This document shows positions 9,157 through 58,741 of a stretch of DNA of 64,000 nt, piece by piece; position 1 is the first letter of the stretch, and each line of letters begins with the position of its first letter. Position numbers and translations under genes: made by a program. The notes beneath the pieces were generated by a model. The model saw nothing but the letters and a program-made list of their open reading frames with translations. It had not been told where the DNA came from and did not search any database. This DNA comes from Hadesarchaea archaeon (GTDB lineage: Archaea > Hadarchaeota > Hadarchaeia > Hadarchaeales > WYZ-LMO6): contig JAPDJF010000001.1 of the NCBI GenBank assembly GCA_029259185.1, forward strand, positions 9,156 through 73,155, written 5' to 3'.

Positions 9157-9689
9157 AGATCAGGGCCATCGTTCGAAAGGGGGTCGGTGAAGTGGAGATC
9201 GCGGGGAGGAAGTTGGGCCCGTTCAGGGAGGGGGAAGAGGTAGAGCTGGAGCACTGGGAGTTAAGAGTCTTGAGGAGACATGGGATGGCTGAACCTGCTC
9301 AAAGGATGGGCATTGCCGAGTTGCGGAAGGTGTTAATCTCGGAGGGAAAGCAAGCGGAGCTCTCCGTTTTGCCAGAGTGGTTTTATCACTCGGTTGCTGG
9401 AGAAATAGAGAGTCTCCGGAGGGAGGGAAAAAACGAAAAAGCCAATGAACTTCGGGCGGCGCTGGAGAGTTTCATAGAGATGCGGTTACACAAACTCGTG
9501 AAACTCGCACTCTCTCCCTCGGAGGCCAAGGGGGCACTCCCTGAAGAACGGATGCTTTTGTCTCGTCTATCCTCTTGTGTGGAGGAATGGATCGAATGGT
9601 TGAATGAGCGTTTCGAGAGAAAGGAGGTGGGGGGAATTGGAGCACGAGGGAATATTCCGAATGTGGTTGGAGAGAAAACCGATATTTAA
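9153..9689 (+). CDS. Hypothetical protein between mcm and cdc6, possibly GINS subunit Gins23
   Basis: It is 178 aa. The segment GEEVELEHWELRVLRRHGMAEP resembles the GINS B-domain pattern (v.lP.W.A..L...G.AE). Its position between MCM and Cdc6 fits this. The call is a context and pattern inference only. Confidence 0.35.
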   Translation: MKIRAIVRKGVGEVEIAGRKLGPFREGEEVELEHWELRVLRRHGMAEPAQRMGIAELRKVLISEGKQAELSVLPEWFYHSVAGEIESLRREGKNEKANELRAALESFIEMRLHKLVKLALSPSEAKGALPEERMLLSRLSSCVEEWIEWLNERFERKEVGGIGARGNIPNVVGEKTDI

Positions 9690-10881
9690 GAACAGGGAGT
9701 ACCTGCGACCAACCTACACTCCCGAGAGACTCCCGCATCGTGAGGAACAGATCCACCAACTAGCTAGGATCTTGGTCGCCCCGCTTCGGGGGGAAACCCC
9801 GTCCAACATCTTCATTTACGGGAAGACGGGGACGGGAAAGACGGCGACAGTTAAGTACGTGATAAAGGAGCTGGAGAAGGTGGGAAAAGAGCTCCAGCGG
9901 AGGGTAGAGGGGATTTATGTAAATTGTGAGATGGTCAACACACGCTACAGGGTACTAGCAACCTTGGTGAATTGCTTGGTGGGAGGCGATAGGGGGGCTC
10001 GAGGCGTTCCAATGACTGGGTGGCCAACCGATGCGGTCTATGATTGCTTCCTCCGATCCCTTGACTCAACGGAGCGCGTGGTGGTGATAGTTATGGACGA
10101 AGTGGACAGGCTCGTTGCCAAGAACGGAGACGATGTGCTTTACGACTTGACCAGAATAAACTCAGAGCTTAGGAGCACTAAGGTGAGCGTCATCGGGATC
10201 TCAAACGATGCTAGGTTCACGACTTACCTTGATCCGCGGGTGAAAAGCAGTCTCGGAGAGGAGGAGATAGTTTTTCCTCCTTATAACGCGATCCAACTCA
10301 AAGACATTTTAGAGCAGAGGGCGTCGGAGGCTTTCAACCCAAGGGTCTTGGGGGAGGGCGTGATTCAGCTTTGTGCCGCCCATGCAGCGAGGGAGCATGG
10401 GGATGCGAGAAGGGCTCTTGATCTGTTGAGAGTAGCCGGAGAACTTGCGGAGAGGGATAATACTGGAATGGTGACGGTGGAGCATGTGAGGAGGGCATAC
10501 GAGAAAGTAGAGCAGGACAAAATGATGGAGCTCATAAGAACTCTCCCGAGCCAGTCGAAACTCGTGCTCTACAGCGTACTCTTGTTGACCGAAAAGGGGA
10601 GGAACAGGATAACGACGGGAGAGGTTTACGAAGCGTACAGGAGGATATGCAGGTCCGGTGGGGTGGACGTCTTGACCCCCCGCAGGGTGAGTGACCTCAT
10701 CTCAGAGTTAGACATGCTCGGAGTGATAAGCACCCAACTTATCAGCAGCGGGCGTTACGGTAGGACGAAAGAGATAGTCCTCAACATTTCTCCGGTTCAG
10801 CTTAGAGCGGCCTTGCAAGAAGATGACTCAATAAGCACTATCGACGTGCTCACGCTCCCACGTCAGCTGACGCTCATGTAG
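9661..10881 (+). CDS. cdc6: Cdc6/Orc1 replication initiator
   Basis: N-terminal motif YTPERLPHREEQI. Walker A IFIYGKTGTGKT. Walker B/sensor VVIVMDEVD. C-terminal winged-helix region. The start is chosen at the internal Met (MWLERKP) because the longer ORF overlaps the upstream gene. Confidence 0.9.
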   Translation: MWLERKPIFKNREYLRPTYTPERLPHREEQIHQLARILVAPLRGETPSNIFIYGKTGTGKTATVKYVIKELEKVGKELQRRVEGIYVNCEMVNTRYRVLATLVNCLVGGDRGARGVPMTGWPTDAVYDCFLRSLDSTERVVVIVMDEVDRLVAKNGDDVLYDLTRINSELRSTKVSVIGISNDARFTTYLDPRVKSSLGEEEIVFPPYNAIQLKDILEQRASEAFNPRVLGEGVIQLCAAHAAREHGDARRALDLLRVAGELAERDNTGMVTVEHVRRAYEKVEQDKMMELIRTLPSQSKLVLYSVLLLTEKGRNRITTGEVYEAYRRICRSGGVDVLTPRRVSDLISELDMLGVISTQLISSGRYGRTKEIVLNISPVQLRAALQEDDSISTIDVLTLPRQLTLM

Positions 10882-12423
10882 GTGGAGAAGGTGGATGGAG
10901 AGTTACTGGTTCGGAAATTCCGAGATGCAGACCTTTGCCTCACCCCGGAGGCTCTGGAGTTCCTCCTCAGAATGGAGGGCAAAGAGGTAGAGGAGCTCCT
11001 GGAGAAGCTGAAGAAGGTTCGTGATGGTCCTTTCGTTACTCCGGAGGTGTTGAGAAAAGCCCTAGGTCTTGAAGAGAAACCCTCCAAAGCGGAGGGAGAA
11101 GAGGGTGGAGCCACGGGTGGTCGCGCTCCGGAGAGAGGGTTAAAAGAGCTCTCTCATGGATCAAAACCCCTCGCGGCCGAGATAGATGCTAGGGTGGAGG
11201 TAATAAAGGACATAACCGGGAAGAGTTACAGCCGTGGGGAGATCAGGGATTTCTTGAGTCTATTCCGTGACCGTTACGAGCGTCTCAGCGCGCTTCTAAG
11301 GAGGCGAACAGATTTTCAGAATCCGGTTTATATTGAGGAGCTTGGGAGGATGGAAGGCGAGACGGTTACCGTTATAGGGATGGTAATGAGCAAGCGTGAA
11401 ACCTCCAGCGGACACCTACTGATCGAAATAGAGGACCTAACGGGGAGGGCGGCGGTTTGGGTTTTCAAGGGGCAGAGAGAGCTAATGCAGAAGGCCGGTG
11501 AGGTGGTACCGGATGAAGTCATAGGAGTAGAAGGAAACGTTCGTCCAGGCGATAAGATCCCCCGCATCCTAGCCAGAGACATAGTTTGGCCCGACCTGCC
11601 GACTCCGAGAGAACCAACGCGCGCTGACGAGCCTGTTTGTGCTGTGTTGATCTCCGATCTGCATGTGGGGAGCAAAATGTTTCTCGAAGACGTTTTCATG
11701 AGGTTCATTAAGTGGCTGAGGGGGGAGCTGGGAAATGCGGATCACCGCGAGCTCGCGGGTAGAACGAAGTATGTGGTTATAGCTGGGGATGTGGTGGACG
11801 GAATAGGTATCTATCCAAAACAGGAGGAAGAACTCTTGATCCATGATATCTTCAGACAGTACGAGGAGGCCGCGAGATTGCTGGAGCAGATCCCTGATCA
11901 TATAACAATAATAATCTCCCCTGGAAATCACGATGGGGTAAGACCCTCTGAACCTCAACCGGCTATTTCGAGGGAGGTGGGTGGACGATTGTATGAGCTG
12001 AATTCGGTCATGGTCGGAAACCCAGCTTGGGTTTCCCTCCACGGAGTTAAATTTCTGATCTACCACGGCAGGAGTTTTGATGACCTAGCGGCCACGGTGC
12101 CCGGGAGCAGCAGGAGCGATATTTCATCGATGATGATTAAACTATTACAAAAGAGACACATGGCCCCGGTCTACGGTGGGAGGGTAGCGGTGGTTCCGGA
12201 AGAAAAAGATTTCTTGGTGATAGAGGAAGTTCCAGATGTTTTTCACTGTGGTCACGCCCATGTTTACGGGCTCAAAAGCTATCGATCTGTCTGGGCGGTC
12301 AACTCGGGGACATTTCAGACGATGACTACTTACATGTGGGAGAGGGGGATAACTCCGACCCCCGGGATAATCACGGTGATGGATTTACAAAAAAATCAAC
12401 CGAAGGTGATAAGACTTGCGTGA
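10882..12423 (+). CDS. DNA polymerase II (PolD) small subunit DP1
   Basis: Calcineurin-like phosphoesterase motifs are present: ISDLHVG, AGDVVDG, GNHD, YHGRSFDD and CGHAHV. The N-terminal region is PCNA and DP2-interacting type. Length 513 aa. Confidence 0.9.
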   Translation: MEKVDGELLVRKFRDADLCLTPEALEFLLRMEGKEVEELLEKLKKVRDGPFVTPEVLRKALGLEEKPSKAEGEEGGATGGRAPERGLKELSHGSKPLAAEIDARVEVIKDITGKSYSRGEIRDFLSLFRDRYERLSALLRRRTDFQNPVYIEELGRMEGETVTVIGMVMSKRETSSGHLLIEIEDLTGRAAVWVFKGQRELMQKAGEVVPDEVIGVEGNVRPGDKIPRILARDIVWPDLPTPREPTRADEPVCAVLISDLHVGSKMFLEDVFMRFIKWLRGELGNADHRELAGRTKYVVIAGDVVDGIGIYPKQEEELLIHDIFRQYEEAARLLEQIPDHITIIISPGNHDGVRPSEPQPAISREVGGRLYELNSVMVGNPAWVSLHGVKFLIYHGRSFDDLAATVPGSSRSDISSMMIKLLQKRHMAPVYGGRVAVVPEEKDFLVIEEVPDVFHCGHAHVYGLKSYRSVWAVNSGTFQTMTTYMWERGITPTPGIITVMDLQKNQPKVIRLA

Positions 12424-13225
12424 GCGAAGAATCGAAAGGGCCTCAGGATTCATCTTAGACATGGACGGGGTTCTCTACTTGGAAGACTCTCCGATCGAAG
12501 GGGCATCGGAGACCGTGAGGAAATGGCGTGAGAAAGGGAAAAAAGTCATATTCCTAACCAACAACTCCTCCCTCTCAAGGAGGATGTATGTGAAGAAGCT
12601 ATCCAAGATGGGCATTAGGGCGGACGAGCGAGAGATAATAACCTCAGCTTACATGACGGCTCTCTATTTGCAGAGGAGGTGTGAGGAAACCTTATTGTAT
12701 GTGGTTGGGGAGAGAGGGCTCAGAGAGGAGCTAAAGGAGGCGGGACTTGAGATGGTTGGAGAGGAGGAGGCGGAAACCGCTACCCATGTGGTGGTGGGAA
12801 TAGATCGATCGTTTAGCTACGATAAGATAGCGGCCTCATTGAGCGCCCTCAGCAGAGGGGCCAAACTGATAGCGACGAACCCAGATCCAACCTATCCAAC
12901 GGGGAGGGGACTCCTACCCGGAGCGGGAGCGATGGTAGCGGCCATCTCCAAGTGTTCAGGAAAGAGACCTCTCATCGTGGGCAAACCTTCTCTGAGGATG
13001 TATGAGTTCGCTCTCCGTATCTTGGGGATGAAACCGGGTGAGGTGGTAGCGGTGGGTGATAGGGTTGATTTAGACATCAAACCTGCGAAGAAGCTGGGGA
13101 TGATCTCGGTGCTGGTTCTCAGCGGGGTGAGCGGGCGTGATTCGCCGATACCGAAGGAAGCTTATTTCCCTGACTATGTCGTTGATCGGATATCAGATTT
13201 GGAGGTGAATCGATGGAAGCGATGA
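12416..13225 (+). CDS. HAD-superfamily hydrolase, subfamily IIA-like
   Basis: Motif I FILDMDGVLY and motif IV VAVGDRVDLD are present. Length 269 aa. It is embedded between the two PolD subunit genes. Confidence 0.6.
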   Translation: MRERRIERASGFILDMDGVLYLEDSPIEGASETVRKWREKGKKVIFLTNNSSLSRRMYVKKLSKMGIRADEREIITSAYMTALYLQRRCEETLLYVVGERGLREELKEAGLEMVGEEEAETATHVVVGIDRSFSYDKIAASLSALSRGAKLIATNPDPTYPTGRGLLPGAGAMVAAISKCSGKRPLIVGKPSLRMYEFALRILGMKPGEVVAVGDRVDLDIKPAKKLGMISVLVLSGVSGRDSPIPKEAYFPDYVVDRISDLEVNRWKR

Positions 13226-16200
13226 GTTCGAGAATGAAGGAGTACTTTGACGAAATCGAGAGGAAGGTCGAGGAAGCGTATGAGATCGGGAGGAGAGCTC
13301 GCTCACTCGGCCTTGATCCCGAGCTGAGTCCAGAGATTCCGATCACGCGAGACTTGGCCTCCAGAGTAGAGGAACTCGTGGGTCCACCGGGTGTGGGTGA
13401 GGTAATCCGAAGGCTGGAGAAGGAAATGTCGAGAGAGGAGTTGGCACTCAAGGTCGCGGAGATGATCGTTGATGGAGAATTGAGTGGGGAGAGAAGTGAT
13501 GAGAAAAGAGCAGAGCAAGCGATCCGAACTGCGCTCGCGATAATAACCGAGGGAATAGCGGTGGCCGCACCCCTTGAAGGGCTAACGCAAGTGAAGATAC
13601 GGAAGAACTTGGATAAAACCCCATACTTAGCGTTGTACTTTTCGGGCCCGATAAGATCCGCAGGGGGGACAGCGGCTTCGCTTGCTGTTCTTACGGGCGA
13701 CTTTGTCCGCAGGAAGTTGCTCCTGGAGCCGTTTAAACCGACGGAGGAGGAAGTTGAGAGATTCGTGGAAGAGGTTAATCTCTACGCTAGCGAGGTAGCC
13801 CATCTCCAATACACTCCTCCTTCCGCCGATGACATACGCCTCGCGGTGCGCAACCTTCCGATAGAACTTACCGGAGAACCCACGAGGCGGGATGTGATGG
13901 TGACGGCTCACAGGGATCTTCCTAGGATCGGGCATAACTTCGTTCGGGGCGGGGCGGTCTTGGCACTCGTTGAAGGGGTGTTGCAGAAGGCTCCGAAGAT
14001 CCTGAAATACGTTAAAAAACTGGGGATCGATGGCTGGGAGTGGCTTGAGGAGCTGGTGGGCAGGATCCCGGCTACGGATGAGGAAGTGGAAGTGCCGAGG
14101 GGAGACAAATATTTGGAAGAAGTGATAGGAGGCAGACCGGTGATATCCCATCCAGGCAAACCTGGTGGACTGAGGCTTAGGTATGGGAGGTCTAGGAACA
14201 CGGGAATAGCGGCACTGGGACTTCACCCCGCAACGATGGTGATTTTGGGTGGATTCCTAGCGGTTGGAACTCAACTCAAGATCGAGCGTCCAGGTAAGGG
14301 GGGAGCCGTGGCCCCAGTGGACTGTATAGAGGGACCAATAGTGAAGCTCGTGGACGGGTCGGTGGTGCAAGTCTCGTCGGTGGAGGAGGCCCAAGAGTTG
14401 GTTGGCAAGGTCAAGGAGGTGATTTCACTCGGGGATTTGCTCGTGGGGTTCGGGGAATTCTTGGAGAATAATCATCCATTAATGGTAGCGGGGTACTCTG
14501 AAGAATGGTGGGCTCAGGAGGTCGAGCGAGCGCTCACTAAACAGGCATTCGGTAGAGATCTCTCCCCTTACCTTTCTCCTCCTTATCCGAAGCCACCTGC
14601 GAGGCTCGCGATAGAAATTTCAGAGAGGCTTGGGGTTCCACTTCATCCAGCTTACACGTACTTTTTCCACGATGTGGGCGTCCCGGAGTTGCTTGACTTA
14701 GCTAGGTGGCTTGCTGAGGGGAAAGCGGAATTCAAGGATGGCGAACTACAAATGTTGGTTTTGTCGTTCAACGAAAGGGCTAAGCGGATACTGGAATTGC
14801 TCGGTGTACCCCATCGGGTTGAGGGGGGGGAGGTAAAAGTGGGGGAGCACGCTTTGCCCCTCTGCAGGTTGTTAGGAATGTTGGGAAGAGGTGAACTGAC
14901 GGATGAAAAACTCAAGAAGTTGGCGAGGGAGAAGCCGGGTGTAGATGCAGTGGAGTTCGTCCAGGAGCTGGCAGGGTTCCCGATAAGGAAGAAGGCCCCA
15001 ACCAGAATAGGGTGCAAGATGGGTAGACCCGAAAAAGCGAGTCCTAGGGAGATGAGACCTCCGCCCCACCTGTTATTTCCCGTGAGTTCCAAAGGGGGGC
15101 CGACGAGGAGTGTGGTGAAAGCGGCGATGAGCGATGAGGTTTGGGTAGAGATCGCCCACCTCCAGTGTCCCGCATGTAAAACGGTGGGATTCTCTAGGAA
15201 GTGTCCGAATTGCGGGCAGCAGATGGAGTTCGTAAAGACGTGCCCTAGGTGCGCCCGGCAATCGACGGAGGAGAGGTGTCCTACGTGCAGGGTCAGAACG
15301 GAGTACTTCAGCAAAAGGAGGGTGGAAATCGGTAAGCTCTTGGAAGAGGCTCAGCGGAGACTCGGGGAGAAGGCCCCGGCGGGACTCAAGGGGGTAAGGG
15401 GCATGTCAAGTGCTTGTAAGATCCCTGAGCTCCTCGAGAAGGGGATCTTGAGGGCAAAGCACGGCTTACATGTGTTCAAGGATGGTACCGTTCGCTTCGA
15501 CGCGACGAATCTCCCACTAACCCACTTCCGCCCGAGGGAGATAGGAATTTCGGTGGGGAGGTTGATAGAACTCGGTTATACGCGTGACTACTTAGGACAA
15601 CCACTTGAAAGAGACGACCAGATACTCGAACTCAAGGTTCAGGATCTAATCCTCTCAGAGAGTTGTGCGGACTACATGCTCAGGGCATCGAAGTTCGTAG
15701 ATGAATTGCTCCAGAAGGTGTACCATCTTCCCCCTTATTACAATGCTTCCAAGAAGGAGGACTTGGTGGGCCACCTCGTGATCGGCCTTGCCCCCCATAC
15801 TTCGGTGGGAGTGGTCGGAAGAATAGTAGGGTTTACCAAAGCGAACGTGGGATACGCACATCCATATTTCCACGCGGCGAAAAGAAGGGATTGCGATGGT
15901 GATGAGGATGCGGTGATGCTTTTGCTGGACGCCCTCCTCAATTTTAGCAAACGTTTTCTTCCGGCCACGCGAGGAGGATTTATGGATGCCCCCCTGATCC
16001 TCAATGTCCACATCAATCCTAGGGAAGTGGATAAAGAGGTACACAACATGGATACGATGTTTAGATATCCGTTGGAGTTCTACGAGGCTACCCTCAGGTT
16101 CGCCCATCCGTCTGAGGTGGTGCACCTCGTGGAAACCGTGGAACGTCGGCTCGGGAGCGAGACCCAATATGAGGGGCTGACCTTCAGCGTCGATACCTCC

Positions 16201-16644
16201 GACATAGCTAAAGGGCCCCTCGTCTCAAGTTATTCGATTCTCGAGAGTATGGAGGAGAAAACATTAGCACAGCTGGAGCTCGCAAGACGAATCCGGGCCG
16301 TTGACGAGCGAGATGTAGCCGAACGTGTAATAGAACACCATTTCATTCCAGATTTGAGGGGGAATTTGCGCAAGTTTTCGAGTCAGCAGTTCAGATGCAC
16401 GGGATGCAATGCAAAATATCGCCGTATTCCACTTGGGGGATCTTGTCCTGAGTGTGGGGGAAACCTCGTTTTGACCGTTTCGAGGGGTACGGTGGAAAAA
16501 TACCTAAACATGGCAATGAAGGTGGCTGATGAGTTTCAAGTCAGAGAGTACACTAAGCAGTGTTTGAAGCTCGTTGAGAAAGACATAAAATCTGTCTTCG
16601 AAAGCGATGCCCAAAAGCAAGTGAGTTTGGCAGATTTTCTGTAG
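13213..16644 (+). CDS. DNA polymerase II (PolD) large subunit DP2, no intein
   Basis: N-terminus MEAMSSRMKEYFDEIERKVEEAYEIGRRARSLGLDPE. Catalytic region GHLVIGLAPHTSVGVVGRIVGFT...DCDGDEDAV. C-terminal zinc module CTGCNAKYRR...CPECGG. Length 1143 aa, continuous. Confidence 0.9.
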   Translation: MEAMSSRMKEYFDEIERKVEEAYEIGRRARSLGLDPELSPEIPITRDLASRVEELVGPPGVGEVIRRLEKEMSREELALKVAEMIVDGELSGERSDEKRAEQAIRTALAIITEGIAVAAPLEGLTQVKIRKNLDKTPYLALYFSGPIRSAGGTAASLAVLTGDFVRRKLLLEPFKPTEEEVERFVEEVNLYASEVAHLQYTPPSADDIRLAVRNLPIELTGEPTRRDVMVTAHRDLPRIGHNFVRGGAVLALVEGVLQKAPKILKYVKKLGIDGWEWLEELVGRIPATDEEVEVPRGDKYLEEVIGGRPVISHPGKPGGLRLRYGRSRNTGIAALGLHPATMVILGGFLAVGTQLKIERPGKGGAVAPVDCIEGPIVKLVDGSVVQVSSVEEAQELVGKVKEVISLGDLLVGFGEFLENNHPLMVAGYSEEWWAQEVERALTKQAFGRDLSPYLSPPYPKPPARLAIEISERLGVPLHPAYTYFFHDVGVPELLDLARWLAEGKAEFKDGELQMLVLSFNERAKRILELLGVPHRVEGGEVKVGEHALPLCRLLGMLGRGELTDEKLKKLAREKPGVDAVEFVQELAGFPIRKKAPTRIGCKMGRPEKASPREMRPPPHLLFPVSSKGGPTRSVVKAAMSDEVWVEIAHLQCPACKTVGFSRKCPNCGQQMEFVKTCPRCARQSTEERCPTCRVRTEYFSKRRVEIGKLLEEAQRRLGEKAPAGLKGVRGMSSACKIPELLEKGILRAKHGLHVFKDGTVRFDATNLPLTHFRPREIGISVGRLIELGYTRDYLGQPLERDDQILELKVQDLILSESCADYMLRASKFVDELLQKVYHLPPYYNASKKEDLVGHLVIGLAPHTSVGVVGRIVGFTKANVGYAHPYFHAAKRRDCDGDEDAVMLLLDALLNFSKRFLPATRGGFMDAPLILNVHINPREVDKEVHNMDTMFRYPLEFYEATLRFAHPSEVVHLVETVERRLGSETQYEGLTFSVDTSDIAKGPLVSSYSILESMEEKTLAQLELARRIRAVDERDVAERVIEHHFIPDLRGNLRKFSSQQFRCTGCNAKYRRIPLGGSCPECGGNLVLTVSRGTVEKYLNMAMKVADEFQVREYTKQCLKLVEKDIKSVFESDAQKQVSLADFL

Positions 16645-16691: not shown

Positions 16692-16776
16692 GCCGGGGTA
16701 GCCTAGCCAGGTAAGGCGACAGCCTCGAGAGCTGTTGACCCATCGGGTCTCGAGGGTTCGAATCCCTCCCCCGGCG
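16692..16776 (+). tRNA. tRNA-Ser (anticodon CGA) with a long variable arm
   Basis: Manual fold: acceptor GCCGGGG/CCCCGGC, D-arm GCCT/AGGC, anticodon stem ACAGC/GCTGT with loop CUCGAGA, variable hairpin GACCC..GGGTC, and T-arm GAGGG-TTCGAAT-CCCTC. CCA is not encoded. Confidence 0.8.
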
Positions 16777-17095
16777 CTGTAGCAAAGTGAAGGATATCCC
16801 CTTTGATGGGGGATTCAATGGGAATTTTCCTTCGGATCTTGAAATTCATTTAGCGCTACAATTAGAGCAGATGCCGGTGGGTTCTAATCTGGTTCAAAAT
16901 TTACAGGATTATTTCGAAAAATGTTCTCCAATACCTAATTGCTGGCGGGGCTGTTCCCCGGCGTGTGGACACCCGTTTCATTGTAAAATACTCGAGGGGC
17001 CATGGCTACCGGGGGCTAACACCCCGCCAGCGATTATTTTGGATATAAAACATGTTTTAATCTAACGGCTAAATACTCAATCAGGAAACGTTAGG

Positions 17096-17171
17096 GCCGC
17101 CGTAGCTCAGCCGGTAGAGCGACCGCCTCGTAAGCGGTAGGTCGTGGGTTCAAAGCCCACCGGCGGCTCCA
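17096..17171 (+). tRNA. tRNA-Thr (anticodon CGU), CCA encoded
   Basis: Manual fold: acceptor GCCGCCG/CGGCGGC, D-arm GCTC/GAGC, anticodon stem ACCGC/GCGGT with loop CUCGUAA, and T-arm GTGGG-TTCAAAG-CCCAC. Discriminator T followed by CCA. Confidence 0.8.
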
Positions 17172-18033: not shown

Positions 18034-19105
18034 TTGTAAAGTATTTATATTTCAATAGGAAACGAGAGATAGGGCGATGAGACAGCTGTTTGTCAGAAGG
18101 CTCACCAAGCGGGAGAGGGACTTCGTTTACAGACTCATCGAGGACAAGCGGTACAGAGCGCGGGGGCTCGTGATCGCGCTGAGCTACGAGGGCTATCCTG
18201 TAGACATGATTGCTAGAAAGGTCAATATGCACCCGGTCAACGTGAGGAAGTGGATACGGAGGTTCAACCGATCCGGTGTCGAGGGCATTGCTCCCCAGAA
18301 GGTCGGGAGGAAGCCGAAGCTGGACAAGCGGACGGAGGATCGGATCGTCGCGATCGCGCTGATCGACCCGGAAGCGCTGGGGCTCCGATTCTCGACTTGG
18401 AGCCTGCGCAAGCTGAGCGCCTATCTGAGATCAAGGGGGATAGCCGACCTGAGCCACACCCAGCTCAGAACCATCCTGACGAGCAGGGGGTTGAGGTTCA
18501 GGCGGAGCAGGGCCAAGCTCATTTCCCGAGACCCCGAGTACGAGGCCAAAAAGCGCAGAATTCAGCGCCTGCTGAGACACCCCAACTGCAGGGTCATGTT
18601 CGAGGACGAGAAGCGTCTGGTGGCCAAGGAGTACGGCGGGTGAAGCTGGTGTAGGAAGGCAAAAGTGGTGGAGCTGAACCAGCGGACGCGGGGGAAGGAG
18701 ATTCTCTTCGTCGCCTACGACCCGCACCGGCATCGGATCGTGAGGCGGTACACACCGAACATGCACGCGCGGTGCTTTGTCGAGTTCCTGAAGCTCCTGT
18801 CGCGCACGACCGACGAGGACATCTATCTGATCTTGGACAACCATCCATCTCATCGCTCGAGGGAGGCCGGGGAGGTGTTCGCGAAGGGCAAGATAAAGCC
18901 CGTGTGGTTGCCGAAACATGCGCCCGAGCTGAACGATGTGGACAAGATCATCTTCTCTCTTCTTCAGCGGGAGGTCATTCAGAACCGGAAGTTCAGGTCG
19001 CTCGATGAGATGGAGCGATGCATCGACCGATGGATAAGAGGGTTCAACTCCTCACACAGAATAAATCCAAGTTTACAAAATTGAAGCACAATTATTTTAC
19101 AATAC
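18034..19105 (+). mobile_element. IS630/Tc1-mariner family insertion sequence, about 1.07 kb, with imperfect terminal inverted repeats
   Basis: The left end TTGTAAAGTATTTATATTTCAAT pairs with the reverse complement of the right end, TTGTAAAATAATTGTGCTTCAAT. The interior is markedly more GC-rich than the flanks. It encodes an IS630-type transposase. Confidence 0.65.
18077..19084 (+). CDS. IS630-family transposase (HTH plus DDE_3 domains), interrupted by a single in-frame TGA at 18641-18643
   Basis: The N-part (188 aa) carries HTH and pairing domains. The C-part (139 aa) is the DDE region (ILFVAYDPHRHRIV...LILDNHPSHRS...LPKHAPELNDVDKIIFSLLQREV). Both parts are in the same frame and are separated only by the TGA (EYGG*SWCRKAKVVEL). 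Confidence 0.7.
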
Positions 19106-28725: not shown

Positions 28726-29277
28726 ATGGGGGGGCGGAAAGGGATCAAGAGAGTTTTCATCCCACTTGTGAAGAACGATTTTATCTATGAGGTACTTTCC
28801 TTCTTTCTTTGCATCGGTATCTTGTACTTTTCCCATCAGGGAATCCTGATGTTGGCCCTGGACTGCGATACCCCCCTCATGCCTGTCATCTCGAATAGCA
28901 TGCAACACCACAGCGAGAGCTGGAAAGTACCATACGAGCAGATGGGTTATGACCCCTCCCAGTTTCCGTTTCAGGGGGGATTCGAGAGGGGCGATCTTCT
29001 TGTGATAAAGGGTGTAGATTCACCTAGTGAGATATCGGTCGGAGATGTGGTGGTATACCAGCGAGTGCCGGGTACGATACCGGTGGTGCATAGGGTGCTA
29101 TCGAAGTCAGAAGACGGACAGATCATCGTCCTGAAAGGGGATGCGAATTCGAGTCCGGATCCGAGCATATCTTTCGAGATGGTTAGGGGAAAGGTGATAT
29201 TGGCAATCCCTAACCTCGGTTGGTTCTCTATATCAGTTTGGAAGTACAGATGGCTTTGCACAAAAATTAGCCCCTGA
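28726..29277 (+). CDS. Signal peptidase I, archaeal Sec11-type
   Basis: N-terminal TM segment. Catalytic Ser box VISNSMQH. The GDLLVIKG and KGDANSSPD boxes are present. Confidence 0.7.
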   Translation: MGGRKGIKRVFIPLVKNDFIYEVLSFFLCIGILYFSHQGILMLALDCDTPLMPVISNSMQHHSESWKVPYEQMGYDPSQFPFQGGFERGDLLVIKGVDSPSEISVGDVVVYQRVPGTIPVVHRVLSKSEDGQIIVLKGDANSSPDPSISFEMVRGKVILAIPNLGWFSISVWKYRWLCTKISP

Positions 29278-30406
29278 GGCCAATTTCCGTGCTTGGGGGC
29301 TCGGAGTCCCCCTCAAGGGCCGAAAGCCCTACGGCCCCGTCCCTGAGCCAGTGGCCCAGGAACCTCTCTCCAATGTTTATGGCTCCGTTGAGGTCGGCGT
29401 TGTACTCGAGGCCACACGAGGGACATTTGAAGAAGCCTTGAGAGACCCTTCGTCCTTCGTTTCCGCAGCGGTGGCACGTTCGGCTGGTGTACGCCTCGCC
29501 GGCGTGCACCACGGGGATCCCCTCCCAGAGAGCCTTGTACTCGATGTACCTTGACAGCCGGTGGTGGGGCATCGAGTGCACGATGCGCCTGAACCTCCGC
29601 CCCTTTGCCCGCTTGCGGATTCCCTTCAGATCTCCTATCACGATAACCGAGTTCCGCTCCTTAGCTTCGCTGACGATAGCCCTTGAGATCTTGTGGCACA
29701 GGTCGTCTATTCGCCGGCGCTCCGTTCTGCCTATCCGCTTGATCACCCGCAGTAGCTTGCGCTCGCCGAGTCGCTTTCGGAGCCAAGCGTAGTGGCGCCT
29801 TATCCCCCTTGCTTCCTTCCCGTAGAGCTTGGGGGAGGTGATGTTGGCCTCCTTCTGCAGCGCCACAGACGCCGCGAGAAAGCGCTCCCCCAAGTCCACT
29901 GCGAGGACGCCGGAGGGACGCATCGGCTTGACCCTACGCTTGACCGTGAGGTGGAGGAAGAACCTCCCGTTGCGGTGGACGAGCTGTGAGTCGGAGATCT
30001 CAACCCTACCCGAGGAGAGAAGCTCCTCGTGGGAGCGCCACATCCGCAGCGGGCACCAGATGCGCCCGCCGGGGGTTGAAACGGATACGAAAAACCTGGC
30101 GAACCTGTTTCCGGTGTCGGTGAGCTTGAATGAGTCCTTATCGATGAGGATGGGAGCCTTCCGCCTGTCCCCGGCCTTCCAAGCTAAAGCACGGCAGTAG
30201 TAGGAGGGCAACCTCGTTTGCTCTCTCAGAGTCCGGTAGTCCCTCTCAAGGGCCTGGGCGCGATCCCACTCGGCTTGGAGGTCCTCCAGAAGCTTGCGCT
30301 TGAACCGGGTGAGGCCGTAGAGTTCAGCCCTTATCGTCTTGGAGACCAACATCGAACGTGGTCTGTCGGAACCATTTTAAGTTTTCCGGTATTTTTGTGC
30401 AAAGCG
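29252..30406 (-). mobile_element. TnpB-only transposon, 1155 bp, with 15-bp perfect TIRs (GCTTTGCACAAAAAT) and a 9-bp TSD (AGTACAGAT)
   Basis: AGTACAGAT occurs at 29243-29251 and at 30407-30415, directly abutting the inverted termini GGCTTTGCACAAAAAT ... ATTTTTGTGCAAAGCG. The element encodes a single full-length TnpB. Confidence 0.75.
29267..30352 (-). CDS. tnpB: TnpB (OrfB) RuvC-like RNA-guided endonuclease family protein, apparently intact
   Basis: Length 361 aa. RuvC-I VLAVDLGE. Zinc finger CHRCGNEG...CPSCG. RuvC-III YNADLNGAINIG. Confidence 0.85.
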   Translation of the reverse strand: MLVSKTIRAELYGLTRFKRKLLEDLQAEWDRAQALERDYRTLREQTRLPSYYCRALAWKAGDRRKAPILIDKDSFKLTDTGNRFARFFVSVSTPGGRIWCPLRMWRSHEELLSSGRVEISDSQLVHRNGRFFLHLTVKRRVKPMRPSGVLAVDLGERFLAASVALQKEANITSPKLYGKEARGIRRHYAWLRKRLGERKLLRVIKRIGRTERRRIDDLCHKISRAIVSEAKERNSVIVIGDLKGIRKRAKGRRFRRIVHSMPHHRLSRYIEYKALWEGIPVVHAGEAYTSRTCHRCGNEGRRVSQGFFKCPSCGLEYNADLNGAINIGERFLGHWLRDGAVGLSALEGDSEPPSTEIGLRG

Positions 30407-40232: not shown

Positions 40233-40823
40233 TGCTTTGCACAAAAATACCGGAAAACTTAAAATGGTTCCGACAGACCACGTTCGATGTTGGCCTCCAA
40301 GACGATAAGAGCTGAACTCTACGGCCTCACCCGGTTCAAGCGCAAGCTTCTGGAGGACCTCCAAGCCGAGTGGGATCGCGCCCAAGCCCCTTGAGAGGCC
40401 GGACTCTGAGAGAGCAAACGAGGCTGCCCTCCTACTACTGCCGTGCTTTAGCCTGGAAGGCTGGCGATGGGCGGAAGGCTCCCATCCTCATCGATAAGGA
40501 CTCATTCAAGCTCACCGACACCGGAAACAGTTCGCCAGGTTTTTCGTATCCGTTTCAACCCCCGGCGGGTGTACGCCGGCGAGGCATACACCAGCAAATG
40601 TGCCACTGGAAACGAAGGACGAAGGGTCTCTCAAGGCTTCTTCAAATGCTCGTCGTGTGGGCTGGAGTACAACGCCGACCTCAACGGAGCCATAAATATT
40701 GGAGAGGGGTTCCTGGGCCACTGGCTCAGGGACGAAGGCGTGGGGCTTTCGGCCCTTAGGGGATCCCGAGCCCCCAAGCACGGAAATTGGCCTCAGGGGC
40801 TAATTTTTTTTGTGCAGAGCCAG
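40233..40823 (+). mobile_element. MITE-like internally deleted derivative of the TnpB transposon, about 590 bp, with both TIRs and a 9-10-bp TSD (AGAGACCTC(T))
   Basis: Left end tGCTTTGCACAAAAATACCGGAAAACTTAAAATGG... Right end ...GGCCTCAGGGGCTAATTTTTTTTGTGCAGAGCC. The flanking direct repeat AGAGACCTCT lies at 40224-40233 and 40824-40833. Only the 5-prime and 3-prime parts of tnpB remain. Confidence 0.7.
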
Positions 40824-40835
40824 AGACCTCTCAGG

Positions 40836-42383
40836 TCACTCCCACTCTATGGTAGCTGGAGGCTTGTGGGTGATGTCGTATACCACCCGGCTTACTTGGG
40901 GGATCTCGTTAGTGATTCTCGTGGAGATCCTCTCCATAAGGTCATGGGGTAATTTTGCATAGCTCGCCGTCATTCCATCCACACTCTCAACCGCTCTTAT
41001 GGCTACTGTGTATCCGTACGCTCTCGCATCCCCTTTCACACCCGTGGATTTCGTGTCCAAGAGAACCGCGAAATATTGCCAGAGGGATCCCTTAACTTCA
41101 TGCTTTTCGATTTCCTCCCTCACTATTGCATCCACCCTCTTGAGTATCTCGATCTTCTCCTTAGTCACCTCACCGATTATCCTTATGGCCAATCCAGGGC
41201 CGGGAAAAGGCTGTCTGTTCACTATACTTTCGGGTATTCCAAGGGATCGGGCTATTTTCCTGACCTCGTCCTTGTATAACTCTCTCAAGGGTTCCACCAC
41301 CCCCTTGAACTTGATTTCGGTCGGGAGACCACCCACGTTGTGATGGGTTTTTATCTTCTCGGAGTGTTTCGAAGCCCCTGACTCTATCCTGTCCGGATAG
41401 ATCGTTCCTTGGATGAGGTATTCCGCCTCGCTCTCTTCTGCTACTTTCTCGAACACATGGATGAATTCTTCCCCGATGATCTTCCTCTTAAGCTCGGGAT
41501 CGCTTACCCCCCTGAGCTTTTCCATAAACCGTTTTCGTTCGTCTAAGACGAGGAGATTCATCCCAAGCTCGGTAAAAGTCTTCTTTATACTCTCTGGTTC
41601 CCCCTCCCTCATGAATCCGTGGTCAACGAAGACGGCTGTCAAATTTCTCCCCACGGCCTTAGCGGCTAGCACAGCAGCTGTGCTTGAGTCTATTCCACCA
41701 CTCAGGGCGATGATACATTTCGAGTTTCCAACCTTTTCCCTGATCTCCTCAACGCACTTTTTCACGAAGTTTTCGGGTGTCCAGTTCGGAACACATCCAC
41801 ATATCTCGAAAAGGAAGTTCCTCAGCAACATCTTTCCTCTGGGTGTGTGGACGACCTCGGGGTGCCACTGGACTCCATAGAGGGGTTTGTGTCTGTGGCG
41901 GAACGCAGCTACTGGGCAATTTTCGGTGTGTGCGAGTATCTCAAACTCTTCGGGCATTTCGTACACGGTGTCTCCATGGCTTGTCCAAACTCTCTCGACC
42001 TTTTGGTGTCCTTTCAGCAAGGTGTCGGTTACATCCACATAGACTTCGGTGATACCGTATTCCATTTTGTCTCCCTTCCTCACATCACCCCCCATGTAAT
42101 GGGCTACCAGCTGGTGACCATAGCATATCCCCAAGATGGGCAACCCCATCTCGAGTATTTCCTTCCGGCATCGGGGAGCCCCTTTCTCATAGATGCTGGA
42201 GGGCCCTCCCGAGAGGATGATCCCTTTCACCGAGTATTCATCATCAAAAGATCGAATCTCCTCGGGCGTGATATCCGGAGGGACGATCTCGGCATACACC
42301 TCCTCTTCCCTGATTCTCCGTTTGATCAAGTGGCAGTACTGCCCGCCGAAGTTCAAGACAAGCACGACATCAGTTTTCATCAA
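40836..42383 (-). CDS. guaA: GMP synthase (glutamine-hydrolysing), full-length with GATase and ATP-PPase domains
   Basis: GATase catalytic region GICYGHQL. PP-loop SGGIDSS. C-terminal dimerisation domain. Length 515 aa. Confidence 0.9.
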   Translation of the reverse strand: MMKTDVVLVLNFGGQYCHLIKRRIREEEVYAEIVPPDITPEEIRSFDDEYSVKGIILSGGPSSIYEKGAPRCRKEILEMGLPILGICYGHQLVAHYMGGDVRKGDKMEYGITEVYVDVTDTLLKGHQKVERVWTSHGDTVYEMPEEFEILAHTENCPVAAFRHRHKPLYGVQWHPEVVHTPRGKMLLRNFLFEICGCVPNWTPENFVKKCVEEIREKVGNSKCIIALSGGIDSSTAAVLAAKAVGRNLTAVFVDHGFMREGEPESIKKTFTELGMNLLVLDERKRFMEKLRGVSDPELKRKIIGEEFIHVFEKVAEESEAEYLIQGTIYPDRIESGASKHSEKIKTHHNVGGLPTEIKFKGVVEPLRELYKDEVRKIARSLGIPESIVNRQPFPGPGLAIRIIGEVTKEKIEILKRVDAIVREEIEKHEVKGSLWQYFAVLLDTKSTGVKGDARAYGYTVAIRAVESVDGMTASYAKLPHDLMERISTRITNEIPQVSRVVYDITHKPPATIEWE

Positions 42384-42660: not shown

Positions 42661-43440
42661 GTGCTTAGCCACAGGTTCTGCTTGTATCCTTCAAAGACAG
42701 CCGAGCGCGCTCTGAATCGACACATGGCACTTTGCAGGTGGCTCTACAACCGCCTGCTCTCGGAGCTGAACTTGGTGAGGGAGAAGGGAATGAGGCTGAG
42801 AGACACCCAAGCCTTGATCGTTGACCTGAAAAAGCACGAGAAGCCTGAACTCAACGAGGTGCACTCAAGAGTTTTACAGATGGTCAGCTCTGGTCGAACG
42901 TTCGTGCTCTTGCTTGGCTGAAGCGGAGCGGTAAAAAAATCGAGAAGTTGTGGTTCAAGGGAAGGGGCTGGTTCAAGACGCTGAACTACAACCAGTCGGG
43001 GTTCAAGCTTGAGAGCGGAAAGCTCGCCCTCTCGAAAATCGGGGAAATCCCCATCAAGCTCCACCGAAAGATTGAGGGAAAAGTGAAGGGGGTTATCTGT
43101 CAAGCGCGAACGCTAGGGCAAGTGGCACGCGATATTTCAGGTGGAGGGGGAATTGGAACCCCTGCCGAAGACGGGCAAGGCGGTCGGGATCGATGTCTGA
43201 TCAAGCGCTTCCTGAGCCTCAAGAACCCGCGCTTCTACGAGCGAACACTTGAACGGATAAGGGTGAGGCAAAAACAGTTGTCTAAGAAGCGGGAGGGTTC
43301 AGCCAACAGGAGAAAAGCTCGATCTTCTCAACTTTTTTGGGGAAGGCCTCAGTCCGCCCATCATCAAATCATCGCTGGGCTCAAAGGTACCGTGACATCA
43401 TCGGCGAATGATTTTTGTCTTGGATCCATAAATCCTTGTC
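42661..43440 (+). pseudogene. Degraded TnpB/OrfB-like gene of a second family, with frameshifts and a truncated C-terminus
   Basis: The N-terminal signature HRFCLYPSKTAERALNRHMALCRWLYNRLL is the TnpB N-terminal pattern. The middle part is in another frame. KAVGIDV (RuvC-I) is readable only in a third frame and is followed by a stop. The zinc-finger and RuvC-III C-terminus is absent. Confidence 0.5.
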
Positions 43441-44523: not shown

Positions 44524-44689
44524 ACTCCTTTCTTATCTTTTTTTAAGCTCATTGGATAATGTTGACGTTAGAAGTCGAGGTATGCGTACAGCCATATTTT
44601 GTCCCCCATTAGATCTAAGAATGTTCAGAAACGATCTTGATAGGTTCCCGAGAAATCGAATTTATAATTTGAGGCACAAAAGGTATTGG

Positions 44690-44798
44690 GCCCCGGTGGT
44701 GTAGACCGGTCAAGGAGGAAGCTCCGCCGAAATCATACAGCCCTTTCGAGCAACGAGGACAGGCTGTGACGTGGGTTCAAATCCCGCCCGGGGCACCA
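44690..44798 (+). tRNA. tRNA-Glu (anticodon UUC) with two putative introns: about 19 nt in the D-loop (44714-44732) and 12 nt at the canonical 37/38 position (44749-44760). CCA is encoded
   Basis: With both inserts removed, the sequence GCCCCGG-UG-GUGUAGACCGGUCAA-UCAU-A-CAGCC-CUUUCGA-GGCUG-UGAC-GUGGGUUCAAAUCCCGC-CCGGGGC-A-CCA matches the canonical archaeal tRNA-Glu. Without splicing, the D-arm and anticodon stem cannot form. Confidence 0.55.
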
Positions 44799-44878: not shown

Positions 44879-45136
44879 GTGATGGAGTTTCCGTGCCACC
44901 GTTGTAGAGAACTTATTCTTTCATTCGTGTTCGTCCTCTTATTCCTGGGTCAGATTACCCCAGTTGGATCACAGGCGCTAACATCGGTTCCAGAGGAGGG
45001 AGTGGTGGTGGCTGTTTTTGATCCCACAACCGGAGATATCGTATACCTCTTCTCTTTCATGGGTGACTGTGGCCCCAGTTTTGAAATGTATGAACGCATG
45101 GGTCTTATCCCCATTGTTATCGAAAACCATCCATGA
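44879..45136 (+). CDS. Small hypothetical secreted or membrane protein
   Basis: 85 aa with an N-terminal hydrophobic segment (LILSFVFVLLFLGQI). No known motif. Confidence 0.25.
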   Translation: MMEFPCHRCRELILSFVFVLLFLGQITPVGSQALTSVPEEGVVVAVFDPTTGDIVYLFSFMGDCGPSFEMYERMGLIPIVIENHP

Positions 45137-46963: not shown

Positions 46964-47527
46964 ATGAAAAAGAAAGTTTCGAACGAGGATGTTTATAGGT
47001 TGCTTCACCCCAGACAGGTTGTTCTCGTGACAAGCATCGGTGAATCAGGGGAACCGAACATCATGCCCGTTGCTTGGTCTACCCCCCTATCTTTCAGCCC
47101 TCCCTTGGTCGGGGTCTCGGTGGGATTTCAGCGATATTCTCACAAGCTCATCATCGAGAGTGGTGAGTTTGTGATCAACATCCCCGGGGTCGAGCTTGCT
47201 TTGAAGGTGCAGGAGTGCGGTAGGGTTTCAGGAAGAACCCATGCCAAATTCGAGGAGGTGGGCCTCACCCCGAAACCTTCCAAGAAGTTGAAGACTCCGA
47301 TCGTAGAAGAGTGTTTAGCCCACTTGGAATGTAAACTCTTCAAGTCGTTGGAAGTTGGGGACCATACCTTCTTCGTCGGTCGGGTGGTGGAAGCATACGC
47401 TGACGAAAAAGTCTTCAAGAGAGGAGTATTCGATCTCAATAAGGCTAAGATACTTTATCATGTTGGGGGTAGCTCTTTCACCACGTTGAGCGATCGTCTA
47501 CTGAATGGTGGGGATGTATCCGCTTAA
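46964..47527 (+). CDS. Flavin reductase-like FMN-binding split-barrel protein
   Basis: RQVVLVTSIGESGEPNIMPVAWSTPLSFSPPLVGVSV follows the flavin-reductase-domain pattern. Confidence 0.6.
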   Translation: MKKKVSNEDVYRLLHPRQVVLVTSIGESGEPNIMPVAWSTPLSFSPPLVGVSVGFQRYSHKLIIESGEFVINIPGVELALKVQECGRVSGRTHAKFEEVGLTPKPSKKLKTPIVEECLAHLECKLFKSLEVGDHTFFVGRVVEAYADEKVFKRGVFDLNKAKILYHVGGSSFTTLSDRLLNGGDVSA

Positions 47528-47612: not shown

Positions 47613-48044
47613 ATGTGGAACAGAGGGAAAAATAGCAAAGGTGGGAGTTTGCAGAGGATGCCCGTAGTCGTGCAAGAAGTATTGAATAACCCGGGAAGAT
47701 TGTTGGGGATTGCCGGGATCCTGTTGTTTGTGGGTTCTCTAGGTTCCTGGTATTCGGGTCCCACCACAAGTGGCTGGGATGCCGGGATAGGTAAGATCAG
47801 CTTCTTCATTTCGCTGATTTTCTTAGCGACGGCGGCTACTCATCTCGGGTACATCCGTCACCCAATCGCCCACCCACTCCTGCCCATGCTCAGCATTTCC
47901 TCGATTTGCGGATTCATAGCGCTGATAACTTGTCTCGTGGGGTTTGACTTGCGCCCGAATTATTCTTGGGGACTCCTCCTCAGCACCGTAGGGGCACTGG
48001 CTGCGCTTTTCGCGGCTTACAAGGCGTACACGCTCAGGGTTTAG
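47613..48044 (+). CDS. Hypothetical integral membrane protein
   Basis: 143 aa with four predicted hydrophobic helices. Confidence 0.4.
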   Translation: MWNRGKNSKGGSLQRMPVVVQEVLNNPGRLLGIAGILLFVGSLGSWYSGPTTSGWDAGIGKISFFISLIFLATAATHLGYIRHPIAHPLLPMLSISSICGFIALITCLVGFDLRPNYSWGLLLSTVGALAALFAAYKAYTLRV

Positions 48045-48362: not shown

Positions 48363-48447
48363 GCGAGGGTGGCCGAGCCAGGTCAAAGGCGTAAGCCTTA
48401 GGAGCTTATCCCGTAGGGGTTCGAGGGTTCAAATCCCTCCCCTCGCA
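48363..48447 (+). tRNA. tRNA-Leu (anticodon UAG) with a long variable arm
   Basis: Acceptor GCGAGGG/CCCTCGC. D-arm GCC-AGCCAGGTCAAA-GGC. Anticodon stem TAAGC/GCTTA with loop CUUAGGA. Variable hairpin CCCGTAGGGG. T-arm GAGGG-TTCAAAT-CCCTC. Discriminator A. Confidence 0.75.
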
Positions 48448-48576
48448 CTTCCAAGGAGTAAACTGATCCCAGCAGTCGAACGCCAGTCTTTTCGTGAGTC
48501 AAGAAGCGTTTCCGCACCCAATTTGACTTAGAAGTGGTTCTTGAGGATTTTTTATATGGAATAGACAAAAAGACGA

Positions 48577-57558: not shown

Positions 57559-58119
57559 GTGGATCTGTTCAAAAAATATGCGGATTTTTTGCTGCTGAGT
57601 TTTTTCCTCCAAAATCCAACGGGCCAGTTCTATGTAAGAGAACTGGCTGAGAAGTTAGGGCTCAGTCCCTCTAAGGTGAGTGTGGCTTCCAGAGCACTCG
57701 AACTTCAAGGGATATTGAAAAGTGAAGAAAGAGGATTGGCCAAATTTTACAGACTCAACAATGACGTTCCGTTGGTGAAGGCTTTTAAGGTCGTTCACAG
57801 TTTAGCGAAACTCAGCGAAGCTAAGCTCGTCGAAAAACTCTTAGAAAGAGATCCGTCCATAATCTCGATCGCGGTTTATGGAAGCTATGCATCTGGAACG
57901 AACGATGAGAAAAGTGCCATCAAGCTCTTGGTGATCAGTCAGAAAGAAAAAGAAGTGTTTCTAGAGGTATTGAGGAGCATCGAGGAACGTCATGGGATCC
58001 GGCTTGATCTGGAAGTACTCAAGCTCGGGGAGTGGAGAGATCGGGTGAAAAAAAGTGATTCCCTCTATCGAGAAGTTCTTTCCGCCCACATCTTGCTCTT
58101 CGGTTCGAACCTCATCTGA
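57559..58119 (+). CDS. HTH plus minimal nucleotidyltransferase (MNT) protein, the intact paralog of the IS-split gene at 17769/19128
   Basis: N-terminal winged HTH. NT motif IAVYGSYASGTNDEKSAIKLLVIS. Confidence 0.6.
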   Translation: MDLFKKYADFLLLSFFLQNPTGQFYVRELAEKLGLSPSKVSVASRALELQGILKSEERGLAKFYRLNNDVPLVKAFKVVHSLAKLSEAKLVEKLLERDPSIISIAVYGSYASGTNDEKSAIKLLVISQKEKEVFLEVLRSIEERHGIRLDLEVLKLGEWRDRVKKSDSLYREVLSAHILLFGSNLI

Positions 58120-58330: not shown

Positions 58331-58741
58331 TCATCCTTTGGATAGTTCCTTCTCTATGGCCTTTATGAATTCCTTAGCAGAATCCATTGCTCCTTTAGCA
58401 TCGCTTCGTTTGACAGATAATGTGGGGTCACTATAGATGGCTGAGACGAATCGATTGAACTGATCTAAAGAGGTCACGTGCTCTCTCAGCTCAGGGTATC
58501 GACACCGAAGATACTCGATCATCGTTTGTCTTTCAACCTCGCTCACCCCATTTCTGAAGAGGAGAGCCCTAGCGGCATGAAACATGGAGATGAGCGAGGC
58601 CACCACGGCCATGTCCCGGTATCCTAGAGCATTGCTATCTTTCGCCCGCTTTAACCATTCTTTTGCAACTTTCAGGGATCTCATACTCATGTTCAACGGC
58701 AAAACCAATTTGAATTGCGTCTCAAAATTTAAAAATTTCAA
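58331..58741 (-). CDS. HEPN-domain protein, the toxin-type partner of MNT
   Basis: LKVAKEWLKRAKDSNALGYRDMAVVASLISMFHAARALLFRNG is the HEPN helical pattern. It is convergent with the MNT gene. Confidence 0.55.
   Translation of the reverse strand: MKFLNFETQFKLVLPLNMSMRSLKVAKEWLKRAKDSNALGYRDMAVVASLISMFHAARALLFRNGVSEVERQTMIEYLRCRYPELREHVTSLDQFNRFVSAIYSDPTLSVKRSDAKGAMDSAKEFIKAIEKELSKG

Follow-up and report, generated by a model that had tools for sequence, protein, structure and literature searches.

An interrupted tRNA-Glu(UUC) gene at 44690-44798

The window, by which we mean the whole stretch of DNA that was analyzed (64,000 nucleotides), carries four tRNA genes, one of which is interrupted. 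This gene, for tRNA-Glu(UUC), is split into three exons (23, 17, and 38 nt) by two introns (19 and 12 nt), and its spliced product is 78 nt long with the encoded CCA included (Table 1). The Rfam tRNA model (RF00005, gathering score 29) matched the locus at 44690-44795 with 41 bits (E 3e-05, model positions 1-71), and the alignment placed 27 nt in the D-loop, where the model has 4, and 15 nt in the anticodon loop, where the model has 3. Standard ARAGORN did not call the gene, returning only Ser-CGA, Thr-CGU, and Leu-UAG from the 64-kb window. With the 19-nt D-loop insert deleted, ARAGORN -i returned a tRNA-Glu(ttc) with a 12-nt intron, AGCAACGAGGAC, and with both inserts deleted ARAGORN returned an intron-free 78-nt tRNA-Glu(ttc).

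The cloverleaf formed from the exons alone is that of a standard tRNA, with all four stems intact and the conserved nucleotides of the D- and T-loops in place. When the spliced product was aligned with the tRNA-Glu of Haloquadratum walsbyi, which has no intron, no gaps were needed and 57/75 positions were identical. A first reading of the DNA, made from the sequence only, had proposed a tRNA-Glu(UUC) gene with two introns, one in the D-loop and one at 37/38, and this was borne out by the covariance-model alignment, by ARAGORN after splicing, and by the search for splicing motifs, with further support from the orthologues and the literature described below. The other three tRNA genes were found by both ARAGORN and Rfam to be free of inserts, as that reading had also stated, and a permissive Rfam scan of the 64-kb window returned no further tRNA-like element at E<=1 beyond the four genes.

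Table 1. Positions of the tRNA-Glu(UUC) gene, its parts, and other features of the window.
Feature	Position	Strand	Basis	Remarks
MCM helicase	5806-9156	+	Pfam	1116 aa; interrupted by an intein (Intein_splicing, residues 373-825)
Cdc6/Orc1	9604-10881	+	Pfam	
PolD small subunit	10882-12423	+	Pfam	
PolD large subunit DP2	13213-16644	+	three DP2 domains, E down to 1e-144	
tRNA-Ser(CGA)	16692-16777		ARAGORN; Rfam	CCA not encoded
tRNA-Thr(CGU)	17096-17171		ARAGORN; Rfam	CCA encoded
IS630-like transposase	18077-19084	+		split: HTH ORF 18077-18643, DDE_3 ORF 18665-19084
TnpB/Cas12f-like (IS605 OrfB)	29267-30352	-		one intact gene
IS605 OrfB fragment	40467-40952	+		decayed
IS605 OrfB fragment	42661-42921	+		decayed
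Putative archaeal TATA box TTTATAAT	44661-44668	+	sequence	centred ~25 nt upstream of tRNA position 1
Pre-tRNA-Glu(UUC) gene GCCCCGGTGGTGTAGACCGGTCAAGGAGGAAGCTCCGCCGAAATCATACAGCCCTTTCGAGCAACGAGGACAGGCTGTGACGTGGGTTCAAATCCCGCCCGGGGCACCA	44690-44798	+	Rfam; ARAGORN after in-silico splicing	109 nt
Exon 1 GCCCCGGTGGTGTAGACCGGTCA	44690-44712	+	BHB-rule search; alignment	acceptor 5′ strand, D-stem 5′ strand, D-loop to A20b
Intron 1 AGGAGGAAGCTCCGCCGAA	44713-44731	+	BHB rule	19 nt, tRNA position 20b/21 (non-canonical, D-loop)
Exon 2 ATCATACAGCCCTTTCG	44732-44748	+		A21, D-stem 3′ strand, anticodon-stem 5′ strand, anticodon loop to G37
Anticodon TTC	44744-44746	+		
Intron 2 AGCAACGAGGAC	44749-44760	+	ARAGORN -i; BHB rule	12 nt, canonical 37/38 site
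Exon 3	44761-44798	+		A38, anticodon-stem 3′ strand, 4-nt variable loop, T arm, acceptor 3′ strand, discriminator A
Encoded CCA of tRNA-Glu	44796-44798	+		
85-aa ORF	44879-45136	+		no Pfam match
Flavin reductase	46964-47527			
Membrane protein	47613-48044			
tRNA-Leu(UAG)	48363-48448		ARAGORN; Rfam	CCA not encoded
Nucleotidyltransferase	57559-58119	+		N-terminal winged HTH
HEPN-domain protein	58331-58741	-		

Both introns lie in relaxed bulge-helix-bulge motifs

Intron boundaries were assigned by the bulge-helix-bulge (BHB) rule, in which a 4-bp central helix (H) lies between 3-nt bulges and each cut falls two nucleotides into a bulge. Exactly one solution of this rule in the D region restored a normal D arm: the exon segment CGGU (44707-44710; C17a-G18-G19-U20) pairs with the intron segment GCCG (44726-44729) in 4/4 pairs, the bulges read CA^A on the 5′ side and AA^A on the 3′ side, and an inner hairpin (h′) of 4 bp, GGAG-GAAG-CUCC, closes the intron. 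The 19-nt D-loop insert of the sequence-only reading is therefore present under this rule, with a boundary one base further to the left than was given there (GGAGGAAGCTCCGCCGAAA becoming AGGAGGAAGCTCCGCCGAA); as A residues flank the insert, splicing at either boundary gives the same product. There is no outer helix immediately next to the 3′ bulge, since the D stem sits 4 nt away, and the motif is thus of the relaxed HBh′ type. The MFE fold draws both the D-intron bulge and h′, with H paired at 3/4 positions at 37 C and at 4/4 at 70 C, and only 0.25% of shuffled 19-nt inserts gave a 4-bp H together with an inner helix of 4 bp or more while restoring a normal D arm.

At the 37/38 site, CUUU (tRNA positions 32-35, C32-U35) pairs with GAGG in the intron, again in 4/4 pairs, with the bulges CG^A (5′) and AC^A (3′). 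The outer helix has 7 bp, and the inner helix consists of just one G-C pair, which makes the motif effectively a bulge-helix-loop (hBH/BHL type). For this arm the MFE fold favors a helix of 5 bp that is displaced by 1 nt (-11.9 vs. -7.4 kcal/mol), and for the whole molecule the MFE is -47.2 kcal/mol vs. -41.2 kcal/mol for the cloverleaf plus BHB. Shuffled 12-nt inserts reproduced the motif in 2.4-11% of cases; by these statistics the 37/38 intron is weak, and its assignment therefore rests mainly on comparative evidence. This came from three Hadarchaeota orthologues (L023, L036, and L043) in which exactly the 12-nt segment is missing, CTTTCG being followed by AGGCTG with nothing between, which fixes the boundaries of the intron. 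In addition, the H pair that involves nucleotide 34 changes along with the anticodon: it is U-A or U-G where the gene reads UUC, and C-G in the one gene that reads CUC. The BHB search suggested in the sequence-only reading could thus draw a motif at both introns, HBh′ at the D-loop and BHL-like at 37/38; neither has the strict hBHBh′ form, and both are relaxed.

The D-loop intron recurs at one site and covaries in sequence

An identical tRNA-Glu gene was found in two further metagenome assemblies, and in two more it differed by one SNP, located at an unpaired D-loop base. Its recurrence in independent assemblies rules out an assembly artefact; the contig is present in the samples ERZ25515360, ERZ25515408, SRR24791474, and SRR22064147. 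We searched 185,579 species genomes by pattern for tRNA-Glu genes whose D region is enlarged. This gave 43 loci, among which the species of the window itself did not appear. Seventeen of the 43 have a D-loop intron that lies at the site used in the window and is built in the same way (CGGU CA^A hairpin GCCG AN^A); the label is Hadarchaeota/Hadesarchaea for eight of them, seven are Methanobacteriota/Methanopyri MAGs, one is from Iainarchaeum, and one is labeled Asgard. When the BHB rule was applied to the 43 loci, introns were also placed at 15/16 (11 loci, mostly DPANN-like MAGs), around 19/20 (6 loci), at 21/22 (5 loci), and at another site (1 locus), while three loci (Haloquadratum, Methanogranum, and Methanocalculus) were chance matches upstream of an intron-free tRNA-Glu and served as intron-free comparators.

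Among the same-site genes, the D-loop hairpin varies in both sequence and length (2 to 12 bp), with pairing always kept, and the insert differs throughout the orthologues in sequence and in length (15-34 nt). Over 14 sequences, h′ showed covariation at pair 2 (GC/CG/GU), pair 3 (AU/GC), and pair 4 (GC/CG/GU). We also aligned 10 short-intron tRNA-Glu genes of the Hadarchaeota type, in which 99.7% of cells form standard pairs, compared with 35-49% when the partners were slid by 1-3 columns; changes on both sides occurred at six pairs, one of them the H pair at nucleotide 34, and RNAalifold, run unguided, recovered the four cloverleaf stems together with the central helix of the D intron. The exons of the window gene are near-identical to those of other Hadarchaeota tRNA-Glu genes, differing by 1 nt from L023.

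It is possible, if somewhat doubtful, that the 20b/21 intron goes back to one ancient intron, which was already present before Hadarchaeota and Methanopyri separated, was passed on vertically, and has been reduced in Hadarchaeota to a near-minimal 15-20 nt, and that the D-loop is a hot-spot for BHB introns. An Iainarchaeum MAG also has the 20b/21 tRNA-Glu intron, and the occurrence of at least four site classes in different uncultivated lineages suggests that introns recur in the D-loop of tRNA-Glu.

Several observations concern the loci of the scan themselves. Each of the four D-loop site classes has a BHB-rule solution that restores GUAG-N-CCGG-NNAA/ACUA-UCAU. Locus L022 (JASEJC010000007.1), labeled Candidatus Hodarchaeaceae (Asgard), carries a tRNA-Glu(CUC) whose exons and D-loop intron are almost identical to those of the Hadarchaeota genes, and which is preceded by the 3′ end of another tRNA, as in the Hadarchaeales locus L026; the contig may be mis-binned or mislabeled. 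Seven loci labeled "uncultured Methanosarcinales archaeon" (L011, L029, L032, L033, L035, L037, and L047) have AT-rich tRNA-Glu D-loop introns that fall in the same classes as those of Woesearchaeota and Nanoarchaeia loci. Introns of these classes are unexpected for Methanosarcinales, so these taxonomic labels may be unreliable.

Putative promoter, neighboring genes, and probable source lineage

Upstream of the gene lies the putative TATA box listed in Table 1, preceded by a purine-rich BRE-like element, GAGAAATCGA. The string gaaattggRTTTAATAAT was found at a matching distance upstream of tRNA-Glu in three Ca. Hadarchaeum loci (L005, L036, and L043) and also in L015. Judging from this sequence pattern, the TATA/BRE-like element probably acts as the promoter of the tRNA-Glu gene.

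Downstream, the flavin reductase of the window has counterparts (52-56% identity) directly after tRNA-Glu in the Hadesarchaea MAG loci L007, L023, and L024, and in L007 the next gene encodes a homolog of the membrane protein (40% amino-acid identity). In the window, glnA and a small ORF stand between tRNA-Glu and the flavin reductase. The ORF directly downstream of tRNA-Glu was also called in three independent metagenome contigs (L001, L002, and L004), there as an 84-aa gene.

The gene content of the window is archaeal by Pfam, with an intein-containing MCM, Cdc6/Orc1, the PolD subunits, PCNA, both primase subunits, GINS, and aIF2-alpha. Thermoproteales/Crenarchaeota are not known to have the family D DNA polymerase (PolD), and the presence of PolD in the window thus argues against Thermoproteales. 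The lineage hint of the sequence-only reading, toward Thermoproteales or TACK groups, does not suit the window: both PolD subunits are encoded, and the tRNA-Glu gene, its promoter region, and the downstream genes match Hadarchaeota MAGs. From these matches, the source of the locus is probably a member of the Hadarchaeota (Hadesarchaea).

Relation to known interrupted tRNA genes

The closest published counterpart is the pre-tRNA-Glu(UUC) of Methanopyrus kandleri, which has an HBh′ intron at 20b/21 in addition to an intron at 37/38 (Kaneta et al., 2018, Nucleic Acids Res 46:1958, PMC5829648), and which therefore shares with the window gene the tRNA species, the anticodon, and both intron sites. 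Both M. kandleri introns were gone within a minute in vitro with a crenarchaeal (alpha-beta)2 EndA, the D-loop intron was processed inefficiently in vitro by A. fulgidus EndA and by the EndA of M. kandleri itself, and mature M. kandleri tRNAs were detected by RNA-seq (PMC5829648). The Methanopyri/Methanobacteriota MAG loci of our scan (L016, L019, L046, and others) have the same junctions as the window gene (CGGU CA^A ... GCCG AU^A). The introns differ in size, at 19 and 12 nt in the window vs. 31-34 and 21-26 nt in the Methanopyri-like loci, as does the inner hairpin of the D intron (4 bp vs. 10-12 bp). A further difference lies in the 37/38 intron, which is relaxed (BHL-like) in the window and canonical in M. 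kandleri (PMC5829648). The host lineage is another, and the type of EndA probably differs too: Hadesarchaea have an alpha4 EndA with an L3 loop, which is probable here as well, whereas M. kandleri has an (alpha-beta)2 EndA without the loop (PMC5829648).

Hadesarchaea were reported to combine the alpha4 EndA with L3 insert with many disrupted tRNA genes (PMC5829648). For Hadesarchaea archaeon YNP_N21, which probably belongs to the same phylum as the source of the window, the main text of that paper refers to the disrupted tRNA genes and names no individual ones (PMC5829648).

More distant parallels exist, which resemble our gene in being interrupted more than once and in having BHB-type introns outside the canonical position. 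Multi-intron tRNAs of this sort abound in Thermoproteales and in some Asgard lineages (PMC11291895). Multi-intron tRNAs of Thermoproteales are said to have been described by Sugahara et al. in 2008. The share of tRNAs that contain introns has been put at 70% in Thermoproteales and at 92-95% in the Asgard Atabeyarchaeia/Freyarchaeia (PMC11291895). The window differs from both groups in lineage, as it has PolD, and in that only 1/4 of its tRNA genes is interrupted.

The double-intron layout of tRNA-Glu was thus already known, and tested in vitro, in M. kandleri, and the window gene is an ordinary further example of it. Mildly new are the near-minimal intron sizes and the presence of four tRNA-Glu D-loop intron sites across uncultivated archaea.

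Alternative readings of the locus

One alternative is that the locus is a decaying tRNA-Glu pseudogene, its inserts being junk and its transcript never matured. We regard this as improbable. The relaxed form of both motifs could be taken as a sign of decay, but all four stems are intact, the exons are a single nucleotide away from L023, and the promoter is conserved. Moreover, the D-loop insert is of the BHB type with compensatory changes across 17 genomes, the two metagenome variants differ only at one unpaired D-loop base, and the homologous M. kandleri gene yields a mature tRNA (PMC5829648).

Another possibility is that only the 37/38 insert is a true BHB intron, and that the D-loop insert is not removed by EndA, being kept as an enlarged D-loop or lost by another route. 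As far as is known, every tRNA needs G18G19 for the interaction between the D- and T-loops, and an insert that stayed in place would sequester them. The 4-bp helix flanked by 3-nt bulges is also the recognition geometry of EndA, and it is invariant in 17 genomes. In favor of this possibility, the D-loop motif has no outer helix, and the homologous intron is cleaved poorly in vitro by strict alpha4 and alpha′2 enzymes (A. fulgidus EndA) and by the M. kandleri enzyme; against it, the crenarchaeal enzyme removes that intron within 1 min, mature M. kandleri tRNA-Glu was observed, and the EndA of Hadesarchaea has the L3 insert associated with broad specificity (PMC5829648). We regard this possibility as very improbable.

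Least credible of all is a single-intron class II tRNA-Leu(CAG) with a 14-nt intron, which ARAGORN -i returned for the same 109 nt when the sequence was left unedited: its intron falls inside the anticodon (35/36), its D-stem has 2/4 sound pairs, its variable arm is heavily mismatched, under the Rfam model the locus reads as a class I tRNA with a UUC loop, no gaps are needed to align the spliced Glu product with tRNA-Glu genes that have no intron, and the "anticodon arm" of the Leu fold is made of the D-loop insert, which differs in every orthologue (15-34 nt), so that such a fold cannot be conserved. A better single-intron fold had been named earlier as an outcome that would count against two introns, and the orthologue comparison effectively refutes this candidate.

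Proposed processing of the precursor

We consider it very likely that the archaeal tRNA-Glu(UUC) gene at this locus, whose source is most likely a member of Hadarchaeota, is functional, and that its 109-nt precursor has two introns in relaxed BHB motifs that are excised, with ligation of the exons to a 78-nt tRNA. The anatomy of gene, exons, and introns, the two motifs, and their conservation with covariation are observed. Transcription, cleavage, ligation, and the responsible enzyme are what we infer, with the cleavage and ligation steps and the type of enzyme taken from the literature. In this scheme, a precursor with two short introns would be transcribed from the TATA/BRE promoter, and its exon-intron junctions would fold into relaxed BHB motifs, each with a 4-bp helix and a 3-nt bulge on either side. 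At the D-loop, C17a-G18-G19-U20 would pair with the GCCG of the intron while the GGAG/CUCC hairpin closes it (HBh′); at 37/38, C32-U35 would pair with GAGG with almost no inner helix (hBH/BHL). EndA, the archaeal splicing endonuclease, would then cut two nucleotides into each bulge, and an RtcB-type ligase would join the three exons, giving a 78-nt product in which G18G19 of the D-loop are freed for tertiary pairing.

Pfam scans of 50 ORFs found neither EndA nor RtcB in the 64-kb window, and six-frame tblastn and phmmer searches of the window with M. jannaschii EndA as the query, which had been validated against PDB 1A79, likewise found no EndA. The sequence-only reading had held that such introns require a splicing endonuclease of relaxed specificity, and this would agree with the alpha4 EndA with L3 insert described for Hadesarchaea (Kaneta et al., 2018, PMC5829648). 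We also considered a C/D-box or other function for the introns and rejected it, as 19 and 12 nt would appear too short.

The main value of the gene lies in annotation: an ordinary tRNA finder (ARAGORN) overlooks it, and genomes of the lineage would as a consequence appear to be without tRNA-Glu(UUC). Beyond this, it adds to the known class of disrupted tRNAs a near-minimal natural case, with introns of 19 and 12 nt and both motifs relaxed, and it supports the published association of L3-loop alpha4 endonucleases with tRNA gene disruption in Hadesarchaea; it opens no new question. If the reading of an ancient intron and a D-loop hot-spot were true, such short, doubly relaxed substrates would offer a natural means of testing the L3-loop alpha4 endonucleases, which are unexplored.

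Other features of the window

The replication genes form a cluster on the plus strand (5806-16644), in the order MCM, Cdc6/Orc1, PolD small subunit, HAD hydrolase, and PolD large subunit, and tRNA-Ser and tRNA-Thr come after the last of these. The intein of MCM lies between the halves of the MCM P-loop domain, and the spacer between MCM and cdc6 (9100-9650) contained no origin-type repeats.

Genes of mobile elements, intact or decayed, are present in several places. In addition to the intact TnpB/Cas12f-like gene, two decayed IS605 OrfB fragments flank guaA, one of them a C-terminal TNB piece and the other an N-terminal HTH_OrfB_IS605 piece, and the second fragment lies ~1.8 kb upstream of tRNA-Glu. 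The split IS630-like transposase, which follows tRNA-Thr at a distance of ~900 bp, may have been frameshifted or have decayed. Toward the end of the window, the nucleotidyltransferase lies near the HEPN-domain protein, and the two neighbors look like a HEPN/MNT toxin-antitoxin pair.
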